A stretch of DNA of 64,000 bases, taken from the sequence record NZ_CP020440.2; one strand, written 5' to 3'. The notes beneath the pieces were generated by a model, which worked only from the letters and a program-made list of their open reading frames with translations, was not told the DNA's origin and did no database searches. Position numbers and translations under genes: made by a program. Positions 38,717 through 47,925 of this stretch are shown one piece after another; the stretch's first letter is position 1, and every line of letters starts with the position of its first letter. The stretch is from a plasmid.

Positions 38717-38808
38717 GGCATGTCCTTTCTGGTTCGCGGGCGCGCTGCCGCGCCCGTTTGGAACAGCGTGCCGCCGCCCCGGTTCCGGCCCGGGCCTGCG
38801 GCCTTGCG

Positions 38809-39204
38809 TCACAGATAGCGGCCCCGCCGCTGCAGCACCTCGATCTGGTAGCCGTCCGGGTCGGCGACGAAGAAGAAGCGCGCGATCACCTCGCCCCCCG
38901 GGGCAAAGTCGACCAGTTTGCGCGGCGCCAGGCCCAGGGCGCTCAGCCGCGCATGTTCAGCGTCGACATCCGCGACCGAAACGGCCAGATGCCCATAGCC
39001 GTCGCCCAGGTCATAGGGTGCCTCGCGGTCCTTGTTGATCGTCAGCTCCAGTTCGAACCCGGTTTCGTCATTGGACAGATAGACCAGCGTGAAGCTGTCG
39101 AAATCCAGCCTTTGCGCCACCCGCAGGCCGAACGCCTGGCCGTAGAAATCAACCGAGCGTGCCTCGTCCAGCACCCGGATCATCGAGTGGATCATCTTTG
39201 CCAT
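38809..39204 (-). CDS. VOC/glyoxalase-family protein (lactoylglutathione lyase-like)
   Basis: 131 aa, glyoxalase I-like HSMIRVLDEARSVDFY...HLAVSVADVD motifs. Confidence 0.75.
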   Translation of the reverse strand: MAKMIHSMIRVLDEARSVDFYGQAFGLRVAQRLDFDSFTLVYLSNDETGFELELTINKDREAPYDLGDGYGHLAVSVADVDAEHARLSALGLAPRKLVDFAPGGEVIARFFFVADPDGYQIEVLQRRGRYL

Positions 39205-39342
39205 CGGGTTTGCATCCTTTCGCCCCTGTCGTGCGCATGGTTCCCCGGCCGGCGCAAAGATGCAACCGGCGCTGGAGCTTCGGAACCGGATATGCGATCA
39301 ATTCCGGGCACTGGCACGGACCCGATTGCAAAGGAAAACAGC

Positions 39343-40251
39343 ATGATCGTTAAGCCCGCCGCCCTGAAACCAGGCCGCCGCGCCGTGATCGGCATGGGAC
39401 TGGGCCTTGCCGCCCTTGGCCTGGGTGCCCGCAGCCCGGCGGGCGCCCAGGGCCAGCCGACGCTGTATTTCTCGGCCATTCCCGATGACGACGAAACCCG
39501 GCTGATGCAGCGCTTCTCGGGCGTCGCCGCCTATCTGGAACGCCAGCTCGGCGTTCCGGTGCGCTATGTCCCGGTCAAGGATTACGCGGCCTCGGTCGTG
39601 GCCTTTCGCAACGACCAGATCCAGCTGGGCTGGTTCGGCGGGCTGACCGGCGTGCAGGCGCAACTGGCCGTTCCCGGATCGCAGGCCATCGCCCAAGGGG
39701 ACGAGGACGCGCGCTTCGTGTCCTATTTCATCGCCCATGAGAGCACCGGGTTGCAGAAATCCGACGGCTTCCCGATGGGCGCGCGCGGCATGAGCTTTAC
39801 CTTCGGCGCGCAGACCTCGACCTCGGGGCGGCTGTTCCCGGATTATTACATCCGCAAGGAAACGGGCGAGGCGCCGGACCAGTTCTTTTCGCGCGTGGGC
39901 TTTTCGGGGGATCACGCGCAGACGCTGCGGCTGGTGTCGACCGGGGCCTATCAGGTCGGCGCGCTGAACTATACCGTCTATGAAAAGGCCGTGGCCGAAC
40001 AGGCCCCCGAGGTCGCGACCACCCGCGTGATCTGGCAGACGCCGCCGTTCCCGGACTACAACTGGACGATCCGGGGCGATGTCGATGCGCGGTTCGGCGA
40101 AGGCTTCATCGAAAAGGTCCGCGCCGCCCTGATCGGCATGACCGACCCGGCGCTGCTTGAATCCTTCCCGCGCAAGGCGTTCATCCCGACCTCGAACGAG
40201 GCCTATCAGCCGATCCTGGAAACCGGCCGCGCGCTGGGTCTGCTGGACTGA
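39343..40251 (+). CDS. phnD: Phosphonate/phosphite ABC transporter substrate-binding protein (PhnD-like)
   Basis: Signal peptide, PhnD/SsuA/PBP-like fold, followed by a PhnC-like ATPase and a PhnE-like permease; RBS AAAGGAAAA. Confidence 0.7.
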   Translation: MIVKPAALKPGRRAVIGMGLGLAALGLGARSPAGAQGQPTLYFSAIPDDDETRLMQRFSGVAAYLERQLGVPVRYVPVKDYAASVVAFRNDQIQLGWFGGLTGVQAQLAVPGSQAIAQGDEDARFVSYFIAHESTGLQKSDGFPMGARGMSFTFGAQTSTSGRLFPDYYIRKETGEAPDQFFSRVGFSGDHAQTLRLVSTGAYQVGALNYTVYEKAVAEQAPEVATTRVIWQTPPFPDYNWTIRGDVDARFGEGFIEKVRAALIGMTDPALLESFPRKAFIPTSNEAYQPILETGRALGLLD

Positions 40252-40260
40252 CCGCCGCGG

Positions 40261-40923
40261 ATGCTGCGGATCGAGGGCGAGACGCTGGGATACGGCGACC
40301 GGGCGGTGCTGGCCGACCTGCGCTTTCACATGCGCCAGGGCGAGCGCGTCGTCCTGCTGGGCCGCAGCGGCAGCGGGAAAAGCACGCTGCTGAACGCGGC
40401 CTATGCGCGTCTTGCCCCCGAACACGCCGCGCGCATCGCGCTGGTGCCGCAGGAACACGGGCTGGTGCCGCAGCTTTCGGTCTTTCACAACACCTACATG
40501 GGGCGGCTGGACCGCCATTCGACGGCCTGGAACCTGCTGAACCTGGTCTGGCCCCAGCGAAGCGCGCGCGCCTCGGTCGATCTGGCGCTGGACCGGGTGG
40601 GCCTGGCGGGCCTGGCGCGCCGGCCGGTCGGCGCGCTGTCGGGCGGGCAGAAGCAGCGCACCGCGCTGGCGCGGGCGATCCACCGCGGCGGCGATGTGCT
40701 GATCGCGGACGAACCCGTCTCGGCCGTGGACGAACGCTACGGGGCCGCGCTTCTGGACCTGCTGGCGGCGCGGTTTCCGACCATGCTGGTCGCGCTGCAT
40801 GATGTGGCGCAGGCACGGCGGCTGGCCAGCCGGATCGTCGGCATCCGGGGCGGGCGGCTGGTGCTGGACCAGCCCGCGCAGGCGGTGACGGATGACCAGA
40901 TCGACGCGCTTTACCGTGTCTAG
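40261..40923 (+). CDS. phnC: Phosphonate ABC transporter ATP-binding protein
   Basis: Walker A GRSGSGKST, signature LSGGQKQR, Walker B; 220 aa. Confidence 0.8.
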   Translation: MLRIEGETLGYGDRAVLADLRFHMRQGERVVLLGRSGSGKSTLLNAAYARLAPEHAARIALVPQEHGLVPQLSVFHNTYMGRLDRHSTAWNLLNLVWPQRSARASVDLALDRVGLAGLARRPVGALSGGQKQRTALARAIHRGGDVLIADEPVSAVDERYGAALLDLLAARFPTMLVALHDVAQARRLASRIVGIRGGRLVLDQPAQAVTDDQIDALYRV

Positions 40924-42472
40924 CCGCGCGCGCGGATATGCGCCCGGCCGCATCGGCACGGCGCTGGCCTTCGTGGCTCTGGGGCTGGCGCTGCTGCCCT
41001 TTGCGGACCTGGGCATCGCCGGCCACGCCCCCTGGGTCGAACTCAGGCGCATGGTCTCGGGTCTGATGGCGCCCGATTTCGGCGCGCTGGAGTCGCTGAC
41101 CCGCACCGCGGGGCTGACCGTGGCCTTCGCGCTGTGTGGCGTCGCCCTGGGCGCGGCCTGCGGCTTTGCGCTGGCGCCGCTTTACAGGCTCGGCCCGGTG
41201 CGGCTGGGCTGTGTCGCCATCCGCGCGGTCCACGAACTGTTCTGGGCCATCCTGCTGATGCAGGTCACGGGCCTGTCGGCCACCACCGGCATCCTGGCCA
41301 TCGCGATCCCTTATGCGGGCATCTTCGCCAAGGTCTTCTCGGAATACCTGGACGAGGCCGACCCCCGCCCCGCCCGCGCCATGCCGCCGGGCGCCGGGGT
41401 CCTGTCGGTGTTCTTCTATGCCCGCCTGCCGCTGGTCTTGCGCGAATTCGGGACCTATGCGCTTTACCGGCTGGAATGTGCGCTGCGGTCCAGCGCGGTC
41501 CTGGGCTTCATCGGCCTGCCCACGCTGGGGTTCGAACTGGACAGCTTTTTCCGCCAGGGCATGTACGGCGCCGTCGCGGCGGTGCTGATCGTCTATTACG
41601 CGATGATCGCCAGCATGCGGCTGTGGATGCGCTGGCGGCTGGCGCCGCTTTACGTGCTGGGCTCGGCTGCGTTCCTGGCGACGCTTGCGACCCCGCCGAT
41701 GGCGCCCGGCGCGCTGTGGCGGTTTCTGACCAGCGACATCGTGCCCGCGCCCCTGCGCAGCGGTGAGCTGGGCGATGCCGCGACCTGGCAACGCTTCTCC
41801 GGCTGGCTGGGCGATCTTCTGTTGCACCAAGCGCTGCCGGGACTGGGGGCGACGATGGTGGTGGCGCAGCTTGCGCTGGTCCTTGCGGGGCTTGTCGCGT
41901 TGCTGGGCTTTCCGCTGATCGTGCCGCGCATCGCCGGCCGCTGGGGGGCGCTGGCGGGCCATCTGGGGCTGGTCGTTGGGCGATCGACGCCGGAATACAT
42001 GCTGGCCTATGTGATGCTTCAGATCCTCGGCCCCTCGATGCTGCCGGCGGTCATCGCGCTGGGGCTGCACAACGGCGCGATCATCGCCCATCTGGTCGGC
42101 CGCCAGTCCGACCATGTGACGCGCGACCTGCGCCCCGACGCGCCGCGCGGCGTCGACCTTTACACCTGGGAGGTGCTGCCCCGCATCTACGGCAACTTCC
42201 TGGCGCTGTGCCTCTACCGATGGGAGATCATCGTCCGGGAATCGGCGATCCTGGGGCTTTTGGGCATTTCGACCCTGGGGTTCTACATCGGCACCGCCAT
42301 CCAGGAAATCAGGACCGACCGTGCCGTCGTCCTGCTGGCGGTGACGGTCCTGGTCACGGTGCTGATCGACCTGGTGTCGCGCCGCAGCCGTGCCCGCCTG
42401 GGGCTGAGCGTACGCATCCGGCAGTCGCAGGACGGGGCAGAAAACGAGACGGCTGCCGAGGCCTTGGGCTGA
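40892..42472 (+). CDS. phnE: Phosphonate ABC transporter permease (fused double PhnE domains)
   Basis: 526 aa with two repeats of the PhnE-type permease core; the start may lie slightly downstream of 40892. Confidence 0.7.
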   Translation: MTRSTRFTVSSRARGYAPGRIGTALAFVALGLALLPFADLGIAGHAPWVELRRMVSGLMAPDFGALESLTRTAGLTVAFALCGVALGAACGFALAPLYRLGPVRLGCVAIRAVHELFWAILLMQVTGLSATTGILAIAIPYAGIFAKVFSEYLDEADPRPARAMPPGAGVLSVFFYARLPLVLREFGTYALYRLECALRSSAVLGFIGLPTLGFELDSFFRQGMYGAVAAVLIVYYAMIASMRLWMRWRLAPLYVLGSAAFLATLATPPMAPGALWRFLTSDIVPAPLRSGELGDAATWQRFSGWLGDLLLHQALPGLGATMVVAQLALVLAGLVALLGFPLIVPRIAGRWGALAGHLGLVVGRSTPEYMLAYVMLQILGPSMLPAVIALGLHNGAIIAHLVGRQSDHVTRDLRPDAPRGVDLYTWEVLPRIYGNFLALCLYRWEIIVRESAILGLLGISTLGFYIGTAIQEIRTDRAVVLLAVTVLVTVLIDLVSRRSRARLGLSVRIRQSQDGAENETAAEALG

Positions 42473-42492
42473 ACGGACATCCCTGGTGATCT

Positions 42493-42520
42493 GACACACT
42501 AGTATCTTGGTGTGTCTTTA
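42493..42520 (+). terminator. Weak hairpin plus TTT after phnE
   Basis: GACACAC-10 nt-GTGTGTC followed by TTT. Confidence 0.3.
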
Positions 42521-42560
42521 CTCCCGGAGCAAGGGGAACGCGGCCCGAAATGGGCCATAG

Positions 42561-43290
42561 GGAAAAATCACGATAAGGATTTTCGACTGGGCAGCCAACG
42601 GCTGCGCCGCAATGCTGGCCGCCGGCAGCCTGCCCGCCGCGGCGCAGGACTATCCGGCCAAGCCAGTCACAGTAGTGGTGCCGCTTTAGCCCGGCGGCGC
42701 CAACGGCGCGTCCCGACGGCTACACGATCATGCAGGCCTCGATCGGCGCCTGTGCGATCAACCCGGCGCTGCAGGACGACCTGCCCTATGATCCGCGCAA
42801 GGATCTGGACATGCTGACCAGCGCCGTCCGCACGCCGAACGCCCTGGTCGCGCGCCCGACGATGGAAGCCGCGACCCTTGAGGAGCTGATCGCCAAGCTG
42901 AAGGCGGAACCCGACAGCATGCTTTTCGCCTCGTCCGGGACCGGCTCGTCGGACCACCTGCCGGCCGAGCTGTTCTGGCAGGTCACCGGCACCTCGGGCA
43001 TCCATGTACTCTACAAGGGCGGCGGGCCTGCCCAGACCGACCTGATGGGCGGCCATGCCGATGCCTCGTTCCAGAACCTGGGCGCCATCGCCAATTTCGT
43101 GCGCGACGGCAAGATGAAGCTCTTGGCCATTGCCGCCGAGGAGCGCTCGCCCGAGTTTCCCGACGTGCCCACGCTGAAGGAACTGGAGAGCGAGGGGATA
43201 CGTCCGCCGAGACCGACGCCTTCGTCGCCGCCGAGATCGACCGCCGGACCGAGGTGGTCAAGGCGGGCGAAATCAAGCCCGAGGGCTGAT
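42561..43290 (+). pseudogene. tctC: Decayed tctC (tripartite tricarboxylate transporter substrate-binding protein, Bug family): no start codon, in-frame TAG, internal deletion and at least two frameshifts
   Basis: Three frames together reconstruct ...AAAQDYPAKPVTVVVPL*PGGANGAS / PDGYTIMQASIGACAINPALQDDLPYDPRKDLDMLTS...LYKGGGPAQTDLMGGHADASFQNL... / DTSAETDAFVAAEIDRRTEVVKAGEIKPEG*, the conserved TctC signature blocks. Confidence 0.75.
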
Positions 43291-43292
43291 CC

Positions 43293-43880
43293 TTGACAAG
43301 CCAAGCGACCGGGGTGCCGGGCCCTCGCACCCAGGATTTCTGGGCGGGCGTCGTCTATGTGGCGCTGGGGTCGGCCACGGTCCTTCTGGGCCGCGACCTG
43401 CCCATGGGCAGCGCCGCCCGGATGGGGCCGGGGTGTTTCCCGACCGTGCTGGGCGGGCTGCTTTCGCCTGAACACGCCGCGCGCTATCCGCACCAGTTCA
43501 GCGGCGGCCAGCGCCAGCGCATCGCGATCGCCCGGGCCCTGGCGATGGAGCCCAGGCTGATCGTCTGCGACGAGGCGGTCTCGGCGCTGGACGTGTCGAT
43601 CCAGGCGCAGGTGATCGCGCTGCTTGACGGGCTGCGGCGCGAATTCGGCCTGTCCTATCTGTTCATCGCCCACGACCTGCCGGTGGTGCGCGATTTCGCC
43701 GACCGCGTGATCGTCATGCGTCAGGGCCGCATCGTCGAGGAAGGCCCCGTCCGCCAGATCTTTGAAAACCCGCGCGAGCCCTATACCCAGGCCCTGCTGG
43801 CGGCGAGCCTGGACCCCGACCCCGAGGTGCAGGCCGCCCGCCGCCTCGCCCGCGACGCCCTGGAGAAGATCCCCGCATGA
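43293..43880 (+). pseudogene. Chimeric ORF: N-terminal fragment of tctB fused at about nt 43465 to the 3' third of a dipeptide/oligopeptide ABC ATPase gene (dppF/oppF-like)
   Basis: Residues 1-57 resemble the TctB N-terminus (..[23 protein letters not shown]); the rest is the oppF C-terminus starting at [42 protein letters not shown].. and lacking Walker A. Confidence 0.65.
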
Positions 43881-44824
43881 AACACGCCCCGATCAAGCCG
43901 CATGTCCTGGTCGCCTATCCGCTGCGCCCGCGCTTCATGGACGAACTCGAGGTGCGCTATACGCTGCACCGCCTCGACCGCGACGGGCCGGGGATGCTGG
44001 ACACGGCAGGGCCGCTTTGCACGGCGATGGTGGTGAACGGGCATGTGACGGTGGACCGGGCGCTGCTGGACCGGCTGCCGGCGCTGCGGCTTGCGGCCTG
44101 TTCCTCGGCCGGGTTCGACCTGATGGACCTGGCCGAAATGACGCGGCGCGGGATCACGCTGACCAACACCTCGGACGCGCTGGTCGACGAGGTGGCGAAC
44201 ATGGCCGTGCTGCTGGCGCTGGCGGCGCGGCGCCAGCTGGTCCGGGCGGATGCCTATGTCCGGTCCGGTGCATGGGGCGAATGCGGCATGTTCCCGCTGA
44301 CCCCCTCGACCGTGGGCAAGCGCACGGGGATCGTCGGGCTTGGCAATATCGGCCAGGCCATCGCGCGCCGGTGCGAGGCCCTGGGCCACCGGATCGGCTA
44401 TTTCGGGCGCAGCCGAAAGCCGGTGGATTACGACTTCTTTCCCGACCTGACGGCACTGGCCGGCTGGGCCGACATCCTGATCGTGGCGACCCCGGGCGGG
44501 CCCGAGACCGAGGGGCTGATCTCGGCCCCGGTGATCGAGGCGCTGGGACCGGAGGGAACGCTGGTCAATGTCGCGCGCGGCACGGTGGTGGACGAGGACG
44601 CGCTGGTCGCGGCCTTGCGCGATGGCCGCCTGGGCTCGGCCGGGCTGGACGTCTATCTGAACGAACCGCGGCCGGACCCCGCGTTCGCGGCGCTGCCGAA
44701 CGCGGTGCTTTATCCCCACCACGCCAGCGGGACCGAGGAAACCCGCGACCGCATGGCCCAGTTGACGCTGGACAACCTGGCGGCCTTCTTCGCAGGCCTG
44801 CCGTTGCCGACCCCGGTGAACTGA
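43877..44824 (+). CDS. D-isomer-specific 2-hydroxyacid dehydrogenase (glyoxylate/hydroxypyruvate reductase-like)
   Basis: NAD-binding [15 protein letters not shown], catalytic R/E/H arrangement; 315 aa. Confidence 0.85.
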
Positions 44825-45900: not shown

Positions 45901-46860
45901 TCAGGGTTCGGCCTGCATTTGAGTGATTGCGGCGGCGGCGATGATATCCTCGACCGAGCATCCGCGCGAGAGGTCGTTTGCGGGTTTGGCGAGGCCTTGC
46001 AGGATGGGGCCGATGGCGGTCAGGCCGCCCAGGCGTTGTGCGATCTTGTAGCCGATGTTGCCCGAGGCGAGGTCTGGGAAGACGAAGACGTTGGGGCGTC
46101 CCGTCAGGGCGCTGTTTGGCGCCTTTTTGGAACGGATCGCGTCGTCGAGGGCGGCGTCGAACTGCATCTCGCCGTCGATTTCCAGCCCCGGCGCGGCCGC
46201 GCGCACCAGGGCCAGCGCCTCGCGGATCTTGAGCAGGCTTGGGTGGTCGGCCGAGCCGGCGGTGGAAAAGGACAGCATTGCCACGCGCGGCTCCTCGGCC
46301 AGCAGGCGCCGGCAGCTGTCGGCGGCCGACAGCGCGATCGAGGCCAGCCCCTCGGCGTCCGGCTCGACCACCAGCCCGCAATCGGCAAAGATCATGCCGC
46401 CCCTGATCGGCGCCGCCGGGCCGCAGGACAGCATCAGGAAGAAGCTCGAGACGATGCCGGCGCCCGGCGCGCGGCCGATGATCTGGAGCGCCGCGCGCAC
46501 CGTGTCGGCGGTGGTGGCGACGGCCCCGCCCAGCGTGCCGTCCGCCTGGCCCAGCCGGACGCGCATTGCCGCCTGGCGGATCGGGTCGCGCATCTCGGCC
46601 AGGGCGCGCTCGGCGGTCATGCCCCGGGCGGCGCGCATCTTGTGCCAGTGCTCGGCAAGTTCGGGCAGGTCGGGCGCCTCGGCCGGGGCAAGCGCCGTCA
46701 CCCCCGCAACGGCCGGCCCGTCCATCAGCGTGATCCGGGCCAGGCCTTCGGCGGTCATGCGGGCGGCGGCCTCGGCCACGCGCGGGTCGCCCCCTTCGGG
46801 CAGGATGATGTGGCGCGGCCGGGCGCGCACGGCGGCCAGGATACGGTCGAGCGGTTTCAT
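45901..46860 (-). CDS. pta: Phosphate acetyltransferase (short form)
   Basis: PTA_PTB family motifs; 319 aa; sits downstream of xsc and tauZ as in taurine-degradation clusters. Confidence 0.85.
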   Translation of the reverse strand: MKPLDRILAAVRARPRHIILPEGGDPRVAEAAARMTAEGLARITLMDGPAVAGVTALAPAEAPDLPELAEHWHKMRAARGMTAERALAEMRDPIRQAAMRVRLGQADGTLGGAVATTADTVRAALQIIGRAPGAGIVSSFFLMLSCGPAAPIRGGMIFADCGLVVEPDAEGLASIALSAADSCRRLLAEEPRVAMLSFSTAGSADHPSLLKIREALALVRAAAPGLEIDGEMQFDAALDDAIRSKKAPNSALTGRPNVFVFPDLASGNIGYKIAQRLGGLTAIGPILQGLAKPANDLSRGCSVEDIIAAAAITQMQAEP

Positions 46861-46863
46861 GGC

Positions 46864-47925
46864 TTACCCCAGCAGATGCAGGCCGGCGGTGACAAAGCCG
46901 CCCAGGAACACGGTATCGGCCAGAAGCACCGCGATGGCGCCGGGACCCACCTCGAGCATGCGCCTGAGCGAGGTCTTGATCCCCACCGCCGCAATGGCGA
47001 TCAGCAGCGCCCAGCGGCTGGCAAGCCCCGCCGCATCGGCCAGCATCGCCGGCATCAGCCCCAGCGAGTTCACCGCCGCCAGCGCCAGGAAGCCCAGCAC
47101 GAAGCCCGGCAGCAGCGGCGGCTTTTGTCCCGCCTGCCGGTCGGCCAGGCCCCTGTGCCGGATGATCAACGAAAAGCACAGCACCACCGGCGCCAGCATC
47201 GAGACCCGGATCAGCTTGACCAGGGTGGCCGTCTCGCCCGCCTCGGGCCCGATCGAGAAGCCCGCGCCGACCACCTGCGCCACGTCGTGGATCGTGCCGC
47301 CGATGAAGACGCCCGCGTCCTGCGGCCCCAGGCCGAAAAGCCGCGCGAGCAGCGGATAGATCACCATGGCGACCGTCGAAAGCACGGTGACCGCCAGCAC
47401 GGTGAACACCAGGTCGCGTTCGGATTTCTCGTGTCTGGGCAGCACGGCGGCGATGGCCATGGCGGCCGAGGCGCCGCAGATCGCCACCGCGCCGCCGGTC
47501 AGCAGCCCGAAGCGCCAGTCGCGCCCGGCAAGCCGCGCCGCCGCGAGCCCGAAGAGGATGGTCAGCACGACGCCCGCCACCACCAGCCCGATGGCGCGCG
47601 GCCCCAGCGCCGCCAGCATGGCGACCGAGATGCGCGCCCCGAGGAGCGCGACGCCCAGCCGCAGCACGCTGCGCGCGGTAAAGGCGATGCCGGGCCCGGT
47701 CCTGGTGCCCTCATCGGCCAGGAAATTGAGCGCGAGGCCCAGAAGCAGCGCCATCAGCATGGCAGGCGCGCCGTAATGCTCGGACAGGAACTGTGCGGTG
47801 GCGGCGACCAGAACCGAGACGGCGATGCCCGGGAAAAGATCGGCAAGGCCGCTGCGCGCGGCGGAAACGACGCGGGCCGGGGCCTTCGGCACGGGTTCTT
47901 CCGGGATCGAGGGGCTGCGGGACAT
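46864..47925 (-). CDS. tauZ: YeiH/UPF0324-family membrane protein (putative sulfate exporter TauZ)
   Basis: 353 aa, about 10 TM helices, family typical of xsc-pta clusters. Confidence 0.75.
   Translation of the reverse strand: MSRSPSIPEEPVPKAPARVVSAARSGLADLFPGIAVSVLVAATAQFLSEHYGAPAMLMALLLGLALNFLADEGTRTGPGIAFTARSVLRLGVALLGARISVAMLAALGPRAIGLVVAGVVLTILFGLAAARLAGRDWRFGLLTGGAVAICGASAAMAIAAVLPRHEKSERDLVFTVLAVTVLSTVAMVIYPLLARLFGLGPQDAGVFIGGTIHDVAQVVGAGFSIGPEAGETATLVKLIRVSMLAPVVLCFSLIIRHRGLADRQAGQKPPLLPGFVLGFLALAAVNSLGLMPAMLADAAGLASRWALLIAIAAVGIKTSLRRMLEVGPGAIAVLLADTVFLGGFVTAGLHLLG

Follow-up and report, generated by a model that had tools for sequence, protein, structure and literature searches.

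The region between positions 42,561 and 43,880 of the DNA analysed here, a 64,000-nucleotide stretch of a plasmid (sequence record NZ_CP020440.2; below, the window), is very probably a multi-step gene-decay scar on the DnaA-like (pYEE2-type) chromid of Paracoccus yeei, in which the remnants left by deletions have been joined in frame. Comparisons with intact loci show that the ancestral locus consisted of tctCBA, genes for an HpcH aldolase and an EamA transporter, two permease genes, a fused ATPase gene and a 2-hydroxyacid dehydrogenase gene. One 6,647-bp deletion joined tctB to the ATPase gene, and deletions of 113 and 148 bp, the loss of the start codon and a nonsense mutation inactivated tctC. 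Strain TT13 would afterwards have removed the whole scar. The first-pass annotation of the window had described a decayed tctC, a tctB fragment and the end of an ATPase gene, and these elements were all located where it had placed them, with small corrections.

As revealed by a megablast search against plasmids, the window matches the pYEE2-type replicon of P. yeei; pYEE2 has been described as a DnaA-like chromid (PMC6209633). Alignment with related strains, the check proposed at the outset, located the intact operons in FDAARGOS_643 (plasmid unnamed4; locus L001) and CCUG 32053 (pYEE2; L004), both of which carry a nine-gene block at the same position and between identical flanking genes. The block includes tctC (978 bp), tctB (480 bp) and tctA (1,506 bp), followed by genes for an HpcH/HpaI-type aldolase, an EamA/DMT transporter and two ABC permeases, and ends with a fused double ABC ATPase (1,632 bp, 543 aa) and the 2-hydroxyacid dehydrogenase. 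The flanks shared by the intact loci contain a selenate/phosphonate-type ABC operon upstream and GNAT, pta and xsc/tau genes downstream. In the window, the upstream phosphonate/selenate-type system (38758-42472) consists of a binding protein, an ATPase and a 526-aa fused permease, the last of which gave no Pfam match. Phosphate acetyltransferase and YeiH-like exporter genes lie downstream of the scar on the minus strand (45901-47925), and in L001 the pta and exporter genes lead into an xsc/tauABC taurine-sulfoacetaldehyde cluster.

The nine-gene block was also found in P. binzhouensis (L011) and in a second P. yeei genomic context (GCA_044626865.1, JBGTYG010000021.1; L009), and a full-length ATPase of 540-544 aa is the norm in 80 loci of Paracoccus and Rhizobiaceae. 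This conservation indicates that the long form is ancestral. In L009 (3377-12576), the block adjoins GntR, IlvD-Edd, RraA-like, aldehyde dehydrogenase and DHDPS genes, a GntR/dehydratase/aldolase/aldehyde dehydrogenase/DHDPS-like set that would form a sugar-acid cluster. An SBP_bac_5 gene is present in the same context, and the arrangement recurs in P. binzhouensis. L009 has a mosaic structure: its identity to the pYEE2-type copy is only 66-90% in tctC, in tctB and in the 5' portion of tctA, and 96-100% from the middle of tctA onward. It was therefore rejected as a simple intact allele and, because of its different context and divergent left end, was used as an intact comparator solely for the ATPase and the dehydrogenase.

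The features of the scar and its borders are listed below.

42473..42572, plus strand: upstream intergenic region, from the end of the preceding ABC permease gene (stop at 42472) to the former tctC, delimited by alignments
42573..43289, plus strand: tctC pseudogene, 717 of 978 bp left (Pfam, blastn to L001 and L004)
42573..42575, plus strand: former tctC start codon, ATG>ATA (alignment to the intact gene)
42687..42689, plus strand: tctC nonsense codon TAG (codon 39), TCG in the intact strains and in L009 (alignment)
42705, plus strand: junction of the 113-bp deletion in tctC, 1 bp of microhomology (blastn and MAFFT against L001)
43198..43199, plus strand: junction of the 148-bp deletion in tctC, 2 bp of microhomology (AT; blastn and MAFFT against L001)
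43293..43880, plus strand: chimeric ORF, 195 aa, 588 bp, TTG start (GTG in the intact gene; ORF search, Pfam)
43293..43462, plus strand: TctB-derived part, codons 1-56 and 2 nt (95% nucleotide identity to L001 5187-5356)
43460..43462, plus strand: junction of the 6,647-bp deletion, GCT common to both parents (comparison of parental sequences)
43463..43880, plus strand: ATPase-derived part, residues 405/406-543 (97% identity to L001 12001-12421, measured over 43460-43880, which corresponds to the 3'-terminal 421 nt of the fused gene)
43877..44824, plus strand: 2-hydroxyacid dehydrogenase, intact, 315 aa (Pfam 2-Hacid_dh_C, E=2e-43, full-length)

The blastn comparison of the window with the intact loci L001 and L004 revealed exactly three gaps, of 113, 148 and 6,647 bp, with microhomology of 1, 2 and 3 bp, respectively; these sizes take account of the overlapping microhomology bases. 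Together with a 1-bp deletion in the upstream intergenic region, the material missing relative to L001 amounts to 6,909 bp (blastn, MAFFT). The DNA is nearly identical and lies at the same locus, so the resemblance of the remnants to tct and ATPase genes is not due to chance.

Pfam TctC (PF03401) matches the middle ORF of the tctC remnant (E=1.3e-35, profile positions 51-205 of 274), and at the DNA level the remnant shares 95-96% identity with the intact tctC annotated on the P. yeei plasmids NZ_CP044082 and NZ_CP031080. The lack of a start codon and the internal TAG, both reported earlier, were borne out: ATA stands at the place of the ATG of the intact gene, and the stop replaces TCG. At site 42575, the window and two other scar-bearing loci, L005 and L008 (ENA ERZ27275079 k119_15706), have A where L001 and L004 have G; at site 42688, the same three have A and the intact alleles C. 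A missing segment of about 40-50 aa and two frameshifts had also been proposed. The loss of coding sequence is real, but it is not a single gap, the 113-bp and 148-bp deletions being themselves the frameshifts. They remove 261 bp, or 87 codons, in total, so that the 5' and 3' remnants share a frame and the middle one lies in another; the coding region of tctC is thus spread over two reading frames. No continuous frame of about 325 aa, with start codon and signal peptide, can be read from the remnant. Considering the start loss, the TAG and the two deletions, it is a pseudogene and not a functional member of the TctC family. L008 bears further deletions of 13 bp (42490-42502), 1 bp (42715), 4 bp (42833-42836) and 1 bp (43051), the first upstream of the tctC remnant, the other three inside it and none in the chimeric ORF; they represent either ongoing decay or metagenome assembly noise.

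The intergenic region in front of tctC (42473-42572) shows about 15 differences and a 1-bp deletion per approximately 100 bp relative to the intact strains, i.e., about 15% divergence, compared with about 2-4% in neighbouring sequence. This exceeds what relaxed constraint alone explains. Either the import of a divergent allele or the rapid evolution of a former promoter/operator may account for it.

The chimeric ORF begins like TctB, as had been noticed in the translation, and 43293-43462 is 95% identical to the intact tctB. The abrupt switch into ATPase sequence was also correctly recognised, except that it occurs at 43460-43462 and not at about 43465. The two ends of the 6,647-bp deletion lie at the second base of codon 57 in tctB and of codon 405 in the ATPase gene. 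Leu codon 57 of the chimera (43461-43463) is consequently built from both parents, each of which has a CTN Leu codon in the same phase, so that the reading frame continues across the join. The product consists of TctB 1-56, then Leu, then ATPase 406-543. The assignment of the second part to the C-terminal portion of a peptide ABC ATPase holds, but the parent is not a stand-alone oppF; it is a 543-aa fused DppD-DppF-type double ATPase. The proposal that most of tctBA and the 5' part of the ATPase gene had been deleted and the remainders joined is shown to be right by the intact sister loci, where the missing part of the ATPase gene makes up the 5' three-quarters. The deletion reached further than supposed, the aldolase and EamA/DMT transporter genes having also been removed and both ABC permease genes being gone.

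The TctB part of the chimera covers the first transmembrane helix and the beginning of the second. A full TctB has about 150-160 aa and four transmembrane helices, and only codons 1-56 are present here. No Pfam TctB (PF07331) match was obtained for the chimera at E<=0.01, so the TctB homology is based on the 95% DNA identity. The Pfam search recovered only positions 100-136 of 137 of ABC_tran (PF00005), plus oligo_HPY. The translation retains the signature FSGGQ, Walker B, the D-loop, the H-loop (FIAHD) and the oligo_HPY C-terminal region, while neither Walker A (GxxGxGK[ST]) nor the Q-loop was found in the 195 aa. The cognate permease genes, both present in L001, L004, L009 and L011, are deleted in the window. 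Lacking Walker A and the Q-loop and beginning with one and a half TctB membrane helices, the 195-aa ORF would be a by-product of the deletion and not a working ATPase. An identical protein has the RefSeq accession WP_339375337.1 and is named 'ABC transporter ATP-binding protein'.

The chimera retains a start codon, now TTG, and the tctB Shine-Dalgarno sequence GAGGG 7 nt before it. Its stop overlaps the start of the 2-hydroxyacid dehydrogenase, the last gene of the ancestral block still whole in the window, as ATGA (43877-43880). This coupling, noted previously, is present, and the same 4-bp overlap between ATPase and dehydrogenase genes in the intact operons of L009, L010 and L011 indicates that it was inherited and not made by the fusion. 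With the tctB ribosome-binding site and the ancestral coupling kept, the chimeric ORF may still be translated. A separate GGAG lies 11 nt before the start of the dehydrogenase gene. A scan of 42300-44000 detected neither a sigma-70-like promoter nor an intrinsic terminator, a result of little weight in a high-GC alphaproteobacterium.

Identical junctions were found in five further assemblies (L003, L005, L006, L007 and L008), colinear with the window and 96.0-99.6% identical to it. Including the window, the six scar assemblies come from separate projects and comprise isolates and metagenomes. The occurrence of the scar in five other independent assemblies, up to about 4% divergent, indicates that it is neither an assembly error nor recent. 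The chimera protein cluster at 90% identity has 11 distinct members, including eight full-length 195-aa variants, one of them in RefSeq. An exact search of GTDB representative genomes with a junction 21-mer gave no match, a weak negative, since the pattern contains site 43463, which is polymorphic. Distinct P. yeei sequences of the intact ATPase are about equally numerous and come from plasmids as well as from a 3.15-Mb chromosome contig; the intact and scar alleles are therefore both common in the species.

The plasmid pTT13-2 of P. yeei TT13 (L002) matches the window up to 42546 and resumes at 44300, so that 42547-44299 is absent. The deletion site lies at L002 9040-9055, and the loss of about 1.75 kb takes in the tctC remnant and the chimera and extends through codon 141 of the dehydrogenase. 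The left flank in TT13 has scar-type alleles, including the 1-bp deletion, and the right flank is nearest to the window haplotype. Judging from these flanks, TT13 most likely represents a later nested deletion on a scar-bearing ancestor, and the intact locus, the scar and the clean loss would form a three-stage series within P. yeei. The chimera and the dehydrogenase, lost or destroyed there, are thus dispensable, at least in TT13.

One more locus, L012 (Logan SRR20303026_147703), encodes a 187-aa ATPase fragment, the C-terminal 98 aa of which are identical to the window allele; over the N-terminal approximately 90 aa (within positions 1-300 of the contig), the identity to either ATPase domain is only about 55%. 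It was considered as a second independent fusion and rejected, as only the first 300 or so nucleotides differ, at an odd low-GC contig start. L012 may represent an assembly chimera or else a rearrangement involving a paralogous ATPase.

The fixed differences between scar and intact alleles are distributed unevenly, with 19 in about 890 bp to the left of the large junction and one to the right. Where a fixed non-synonymous difference can be aligned to L009 and L011, these two loci agree on the residue and the scar lineage has the derived state, as in TAT>TGT at 42752 and at 43435. Across the 139 residues that come from the ATPase, five private singleton replacements occur in 10 chimera variants and none in nine intact proteins, which do not vary at these positions; the comparison is biased by the sampling of distinct sequences. 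The dehydrogenase (43881-44821) shows 12 non-synonymous (N) and 10 synonymous (S) polymorphisms among the scar haplotypes and 12N:11S among the intact ones, with a concentration towards the N-terminus; constraint on this gene may be weak in P. yeei as a whole.

The polymorphism of the remnants was compared among six scar and four intact haplotypes. The counts within the scar are 16S:5N in the ATPase part of the chimera, 4S:7N in its TctB part and 19S:22N in the tctC remnants. The ATPase part differs from the pooled tctC and tctB remnants (23S:29N; Fisher p=0.019), and the excess of synonymous changes in it persists when only scar-private sites are counted (11S:3N, p=0.034). These figures alone would suggest purifying selection on the chimera, which could then be a functional new gene encoding a membrane-anchored ABC NBD fragment that, for example, modulates paralogous peptide ATPases. 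The allele is, moreover, old and widespread, and the 588-bp ORF is free of indels and stops in all six DNA haplotypes and all eight full-length protein variants. However, the four intact alleles show a like ratio in the same segment (9S:2N; p=1.0 against the scar ratio), and six of the 21 scar polymorphisms in the ATPase part are shared with these alleles, among them a three-site haplotype located 5-10 bp from the large junction and common to L006 and L009. In the dehydrogenase, 15 of 22 polymorphisms are shared between scar and intact loci. An apparent signal of selection obtained from the window and L003 only (ATPase part 9S:1N, TctB part 1S:4N) was discarded because the ratio matches the intact one and sites are shared. 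The sharing of sites with intact alleles points to variation imported from functional copies, and the mostly synonymous polymorphism of the ATPase part is best explained by recombination with intact alleles and not by selection on the chimera. The paucity of fixed differences to the right of the junction, the private singleton replacements, with the sampling bias stated above, the seemingly neutral TctB part, the missing Walker A and Q-loop, and the removal of the whole ORF in TT13 also speak against a working gene, and this reading is very unlikely.

Selection might instead act only against stops and frameshifts, and not against missense changes, if the ORF were kept open solely as a translational ramp for the dehydrogenase. 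The ATGA overlap is ancestral and present in all loci examined, the tctB Shine-Dalgarno sequence is retained, and the ORF has no indels where the tctC remnant of L008 has three. But the dehydrogenase has a ribosome-binding site of its own, and its share of non-synonymous changes is high in both allele classes. An open frame of 588 bp is also statistically unremarkable, with about one stop expected by our estimate, and TT13 destroyed the dehydrogenase itself; such a role is highly improbable. Taken together, it is very unlikely that the chimera is a young gene maintained in part of the P. yeei population, be it a membrane-tethered half NBD interfering or pairing with paralogous peptide ABC ATPases or an obligatory translated leader of the dehydrogenase. 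If true, such a role would explain how 1.3 kb of otherwise dead DNA came through about 3-4% divergence without any interruption of the ORF. The remaining alternatives, an assembly or sequencing artefact behind the frameshifts and the fusion, or an insertion that turned an ancestral short form into the long one, found no support and have a negligible probability. The identical junctions and frameshifts recur in six independent assemblies from isolates and metagenomes, relatives carry longer, intact genes at the locus, the long form recurs in other species with its genes at full length, and it is in the short form that genes are truncated, a nonsense codon has appeared and a start codon has been lost.

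Under the decay explanation, the 1-3 bp shared at each breakpoint suggest that the deletions arose by illegitimate, microhomology-mediated recombination (slippage or end-joining), and not through repeats or IS elements. The in-frame join would be accidental, with about one chance in three. It seems that the scar has a single, old origin and survives in some strains of the species, others keeping the intact block, and that its flanks, including the ATPase fragment, go on exchanging sequence with intact alleles. Homologous recombination with these alleles would run to the edge of homology and bring in functionally filtered variation; the short remnants between the deletions would be cut off from this exchange and hence drift. 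The strain would have lost a TTT importer, an aldolase, a DMT transporter and a peptide-type ABC importer. No binding-protein gene lies alongside the ABC genes of the block on the pYEE2-type replicon. The copy there may have been of little use already before its loss, which would have eased it.

TctC is the Bug-family binding protein of the tripartite tricarboxylate transporter (TTT). The remnants derive from a canonical tctC-tctB-tctA set of this family (PF03401, PF07331, PF01970), and sister strains still have this set intact; in the window, tctC is a pseudogene, tctB ends after codon 56 and tctA is missing, so that no TctCBA transporter can be made. The 3' part of the chimera, 97% identical in DNA over the last 139 codons, belongs with the GsiA-like/DppD-DppF fused double ATPases (two ABC_tran domains and oligo_HPY), but its first domain is gone, the second is partial and the permease genes are absent. 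Like other deletion-fusion ORFs, the chimera has been annotated as an ordinary gene, but it is probably without function here.

In its start loss, nonsense mutation, small frameshifting deletions and multi-gene microhomology deletion, as well as in its complete later removal in a related strain, the locus resembles other bacterial pseudogenes and deletion scars. Pseudogenes in bacteria are commonly thought to be quickly purged, and their turnover has reportedly been the subject of work by Kuo and Ochman. Unlike such short-lived remnants, the P. yeei scar has lasted through about 3-4% divergence beside the intact allele. This is long for dead bacterial DNA and, with the synonymous excess and the uninterrupted ORF discussed above, counts against decay. 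The genomes of P. yeei contain on average about 190 pseudogenes, approximately 45% of them on extrachromosomal replicons (PMC11578231), and no mention of the scar locus was found in the two P. yeei genome papers (PMC11578231, PMC6209633).

The scar is a case of ordinary genome decay and not a new molecular system. Its interest is modest and lies in a fusion annotated as a normal gene, in long persistence beside an intact allele and in the mimicry of selection. WP_339375337.1 is really a TctB/ATPase deletion fusion and would be better flagged as a pseudogene or fusion remnant. The series of intact, scar and loss states on one chromid could serve in studies of pseudogene lifetime, and the locus could show how recombination with functional alleles mimics purifying selection on a dead fragment.
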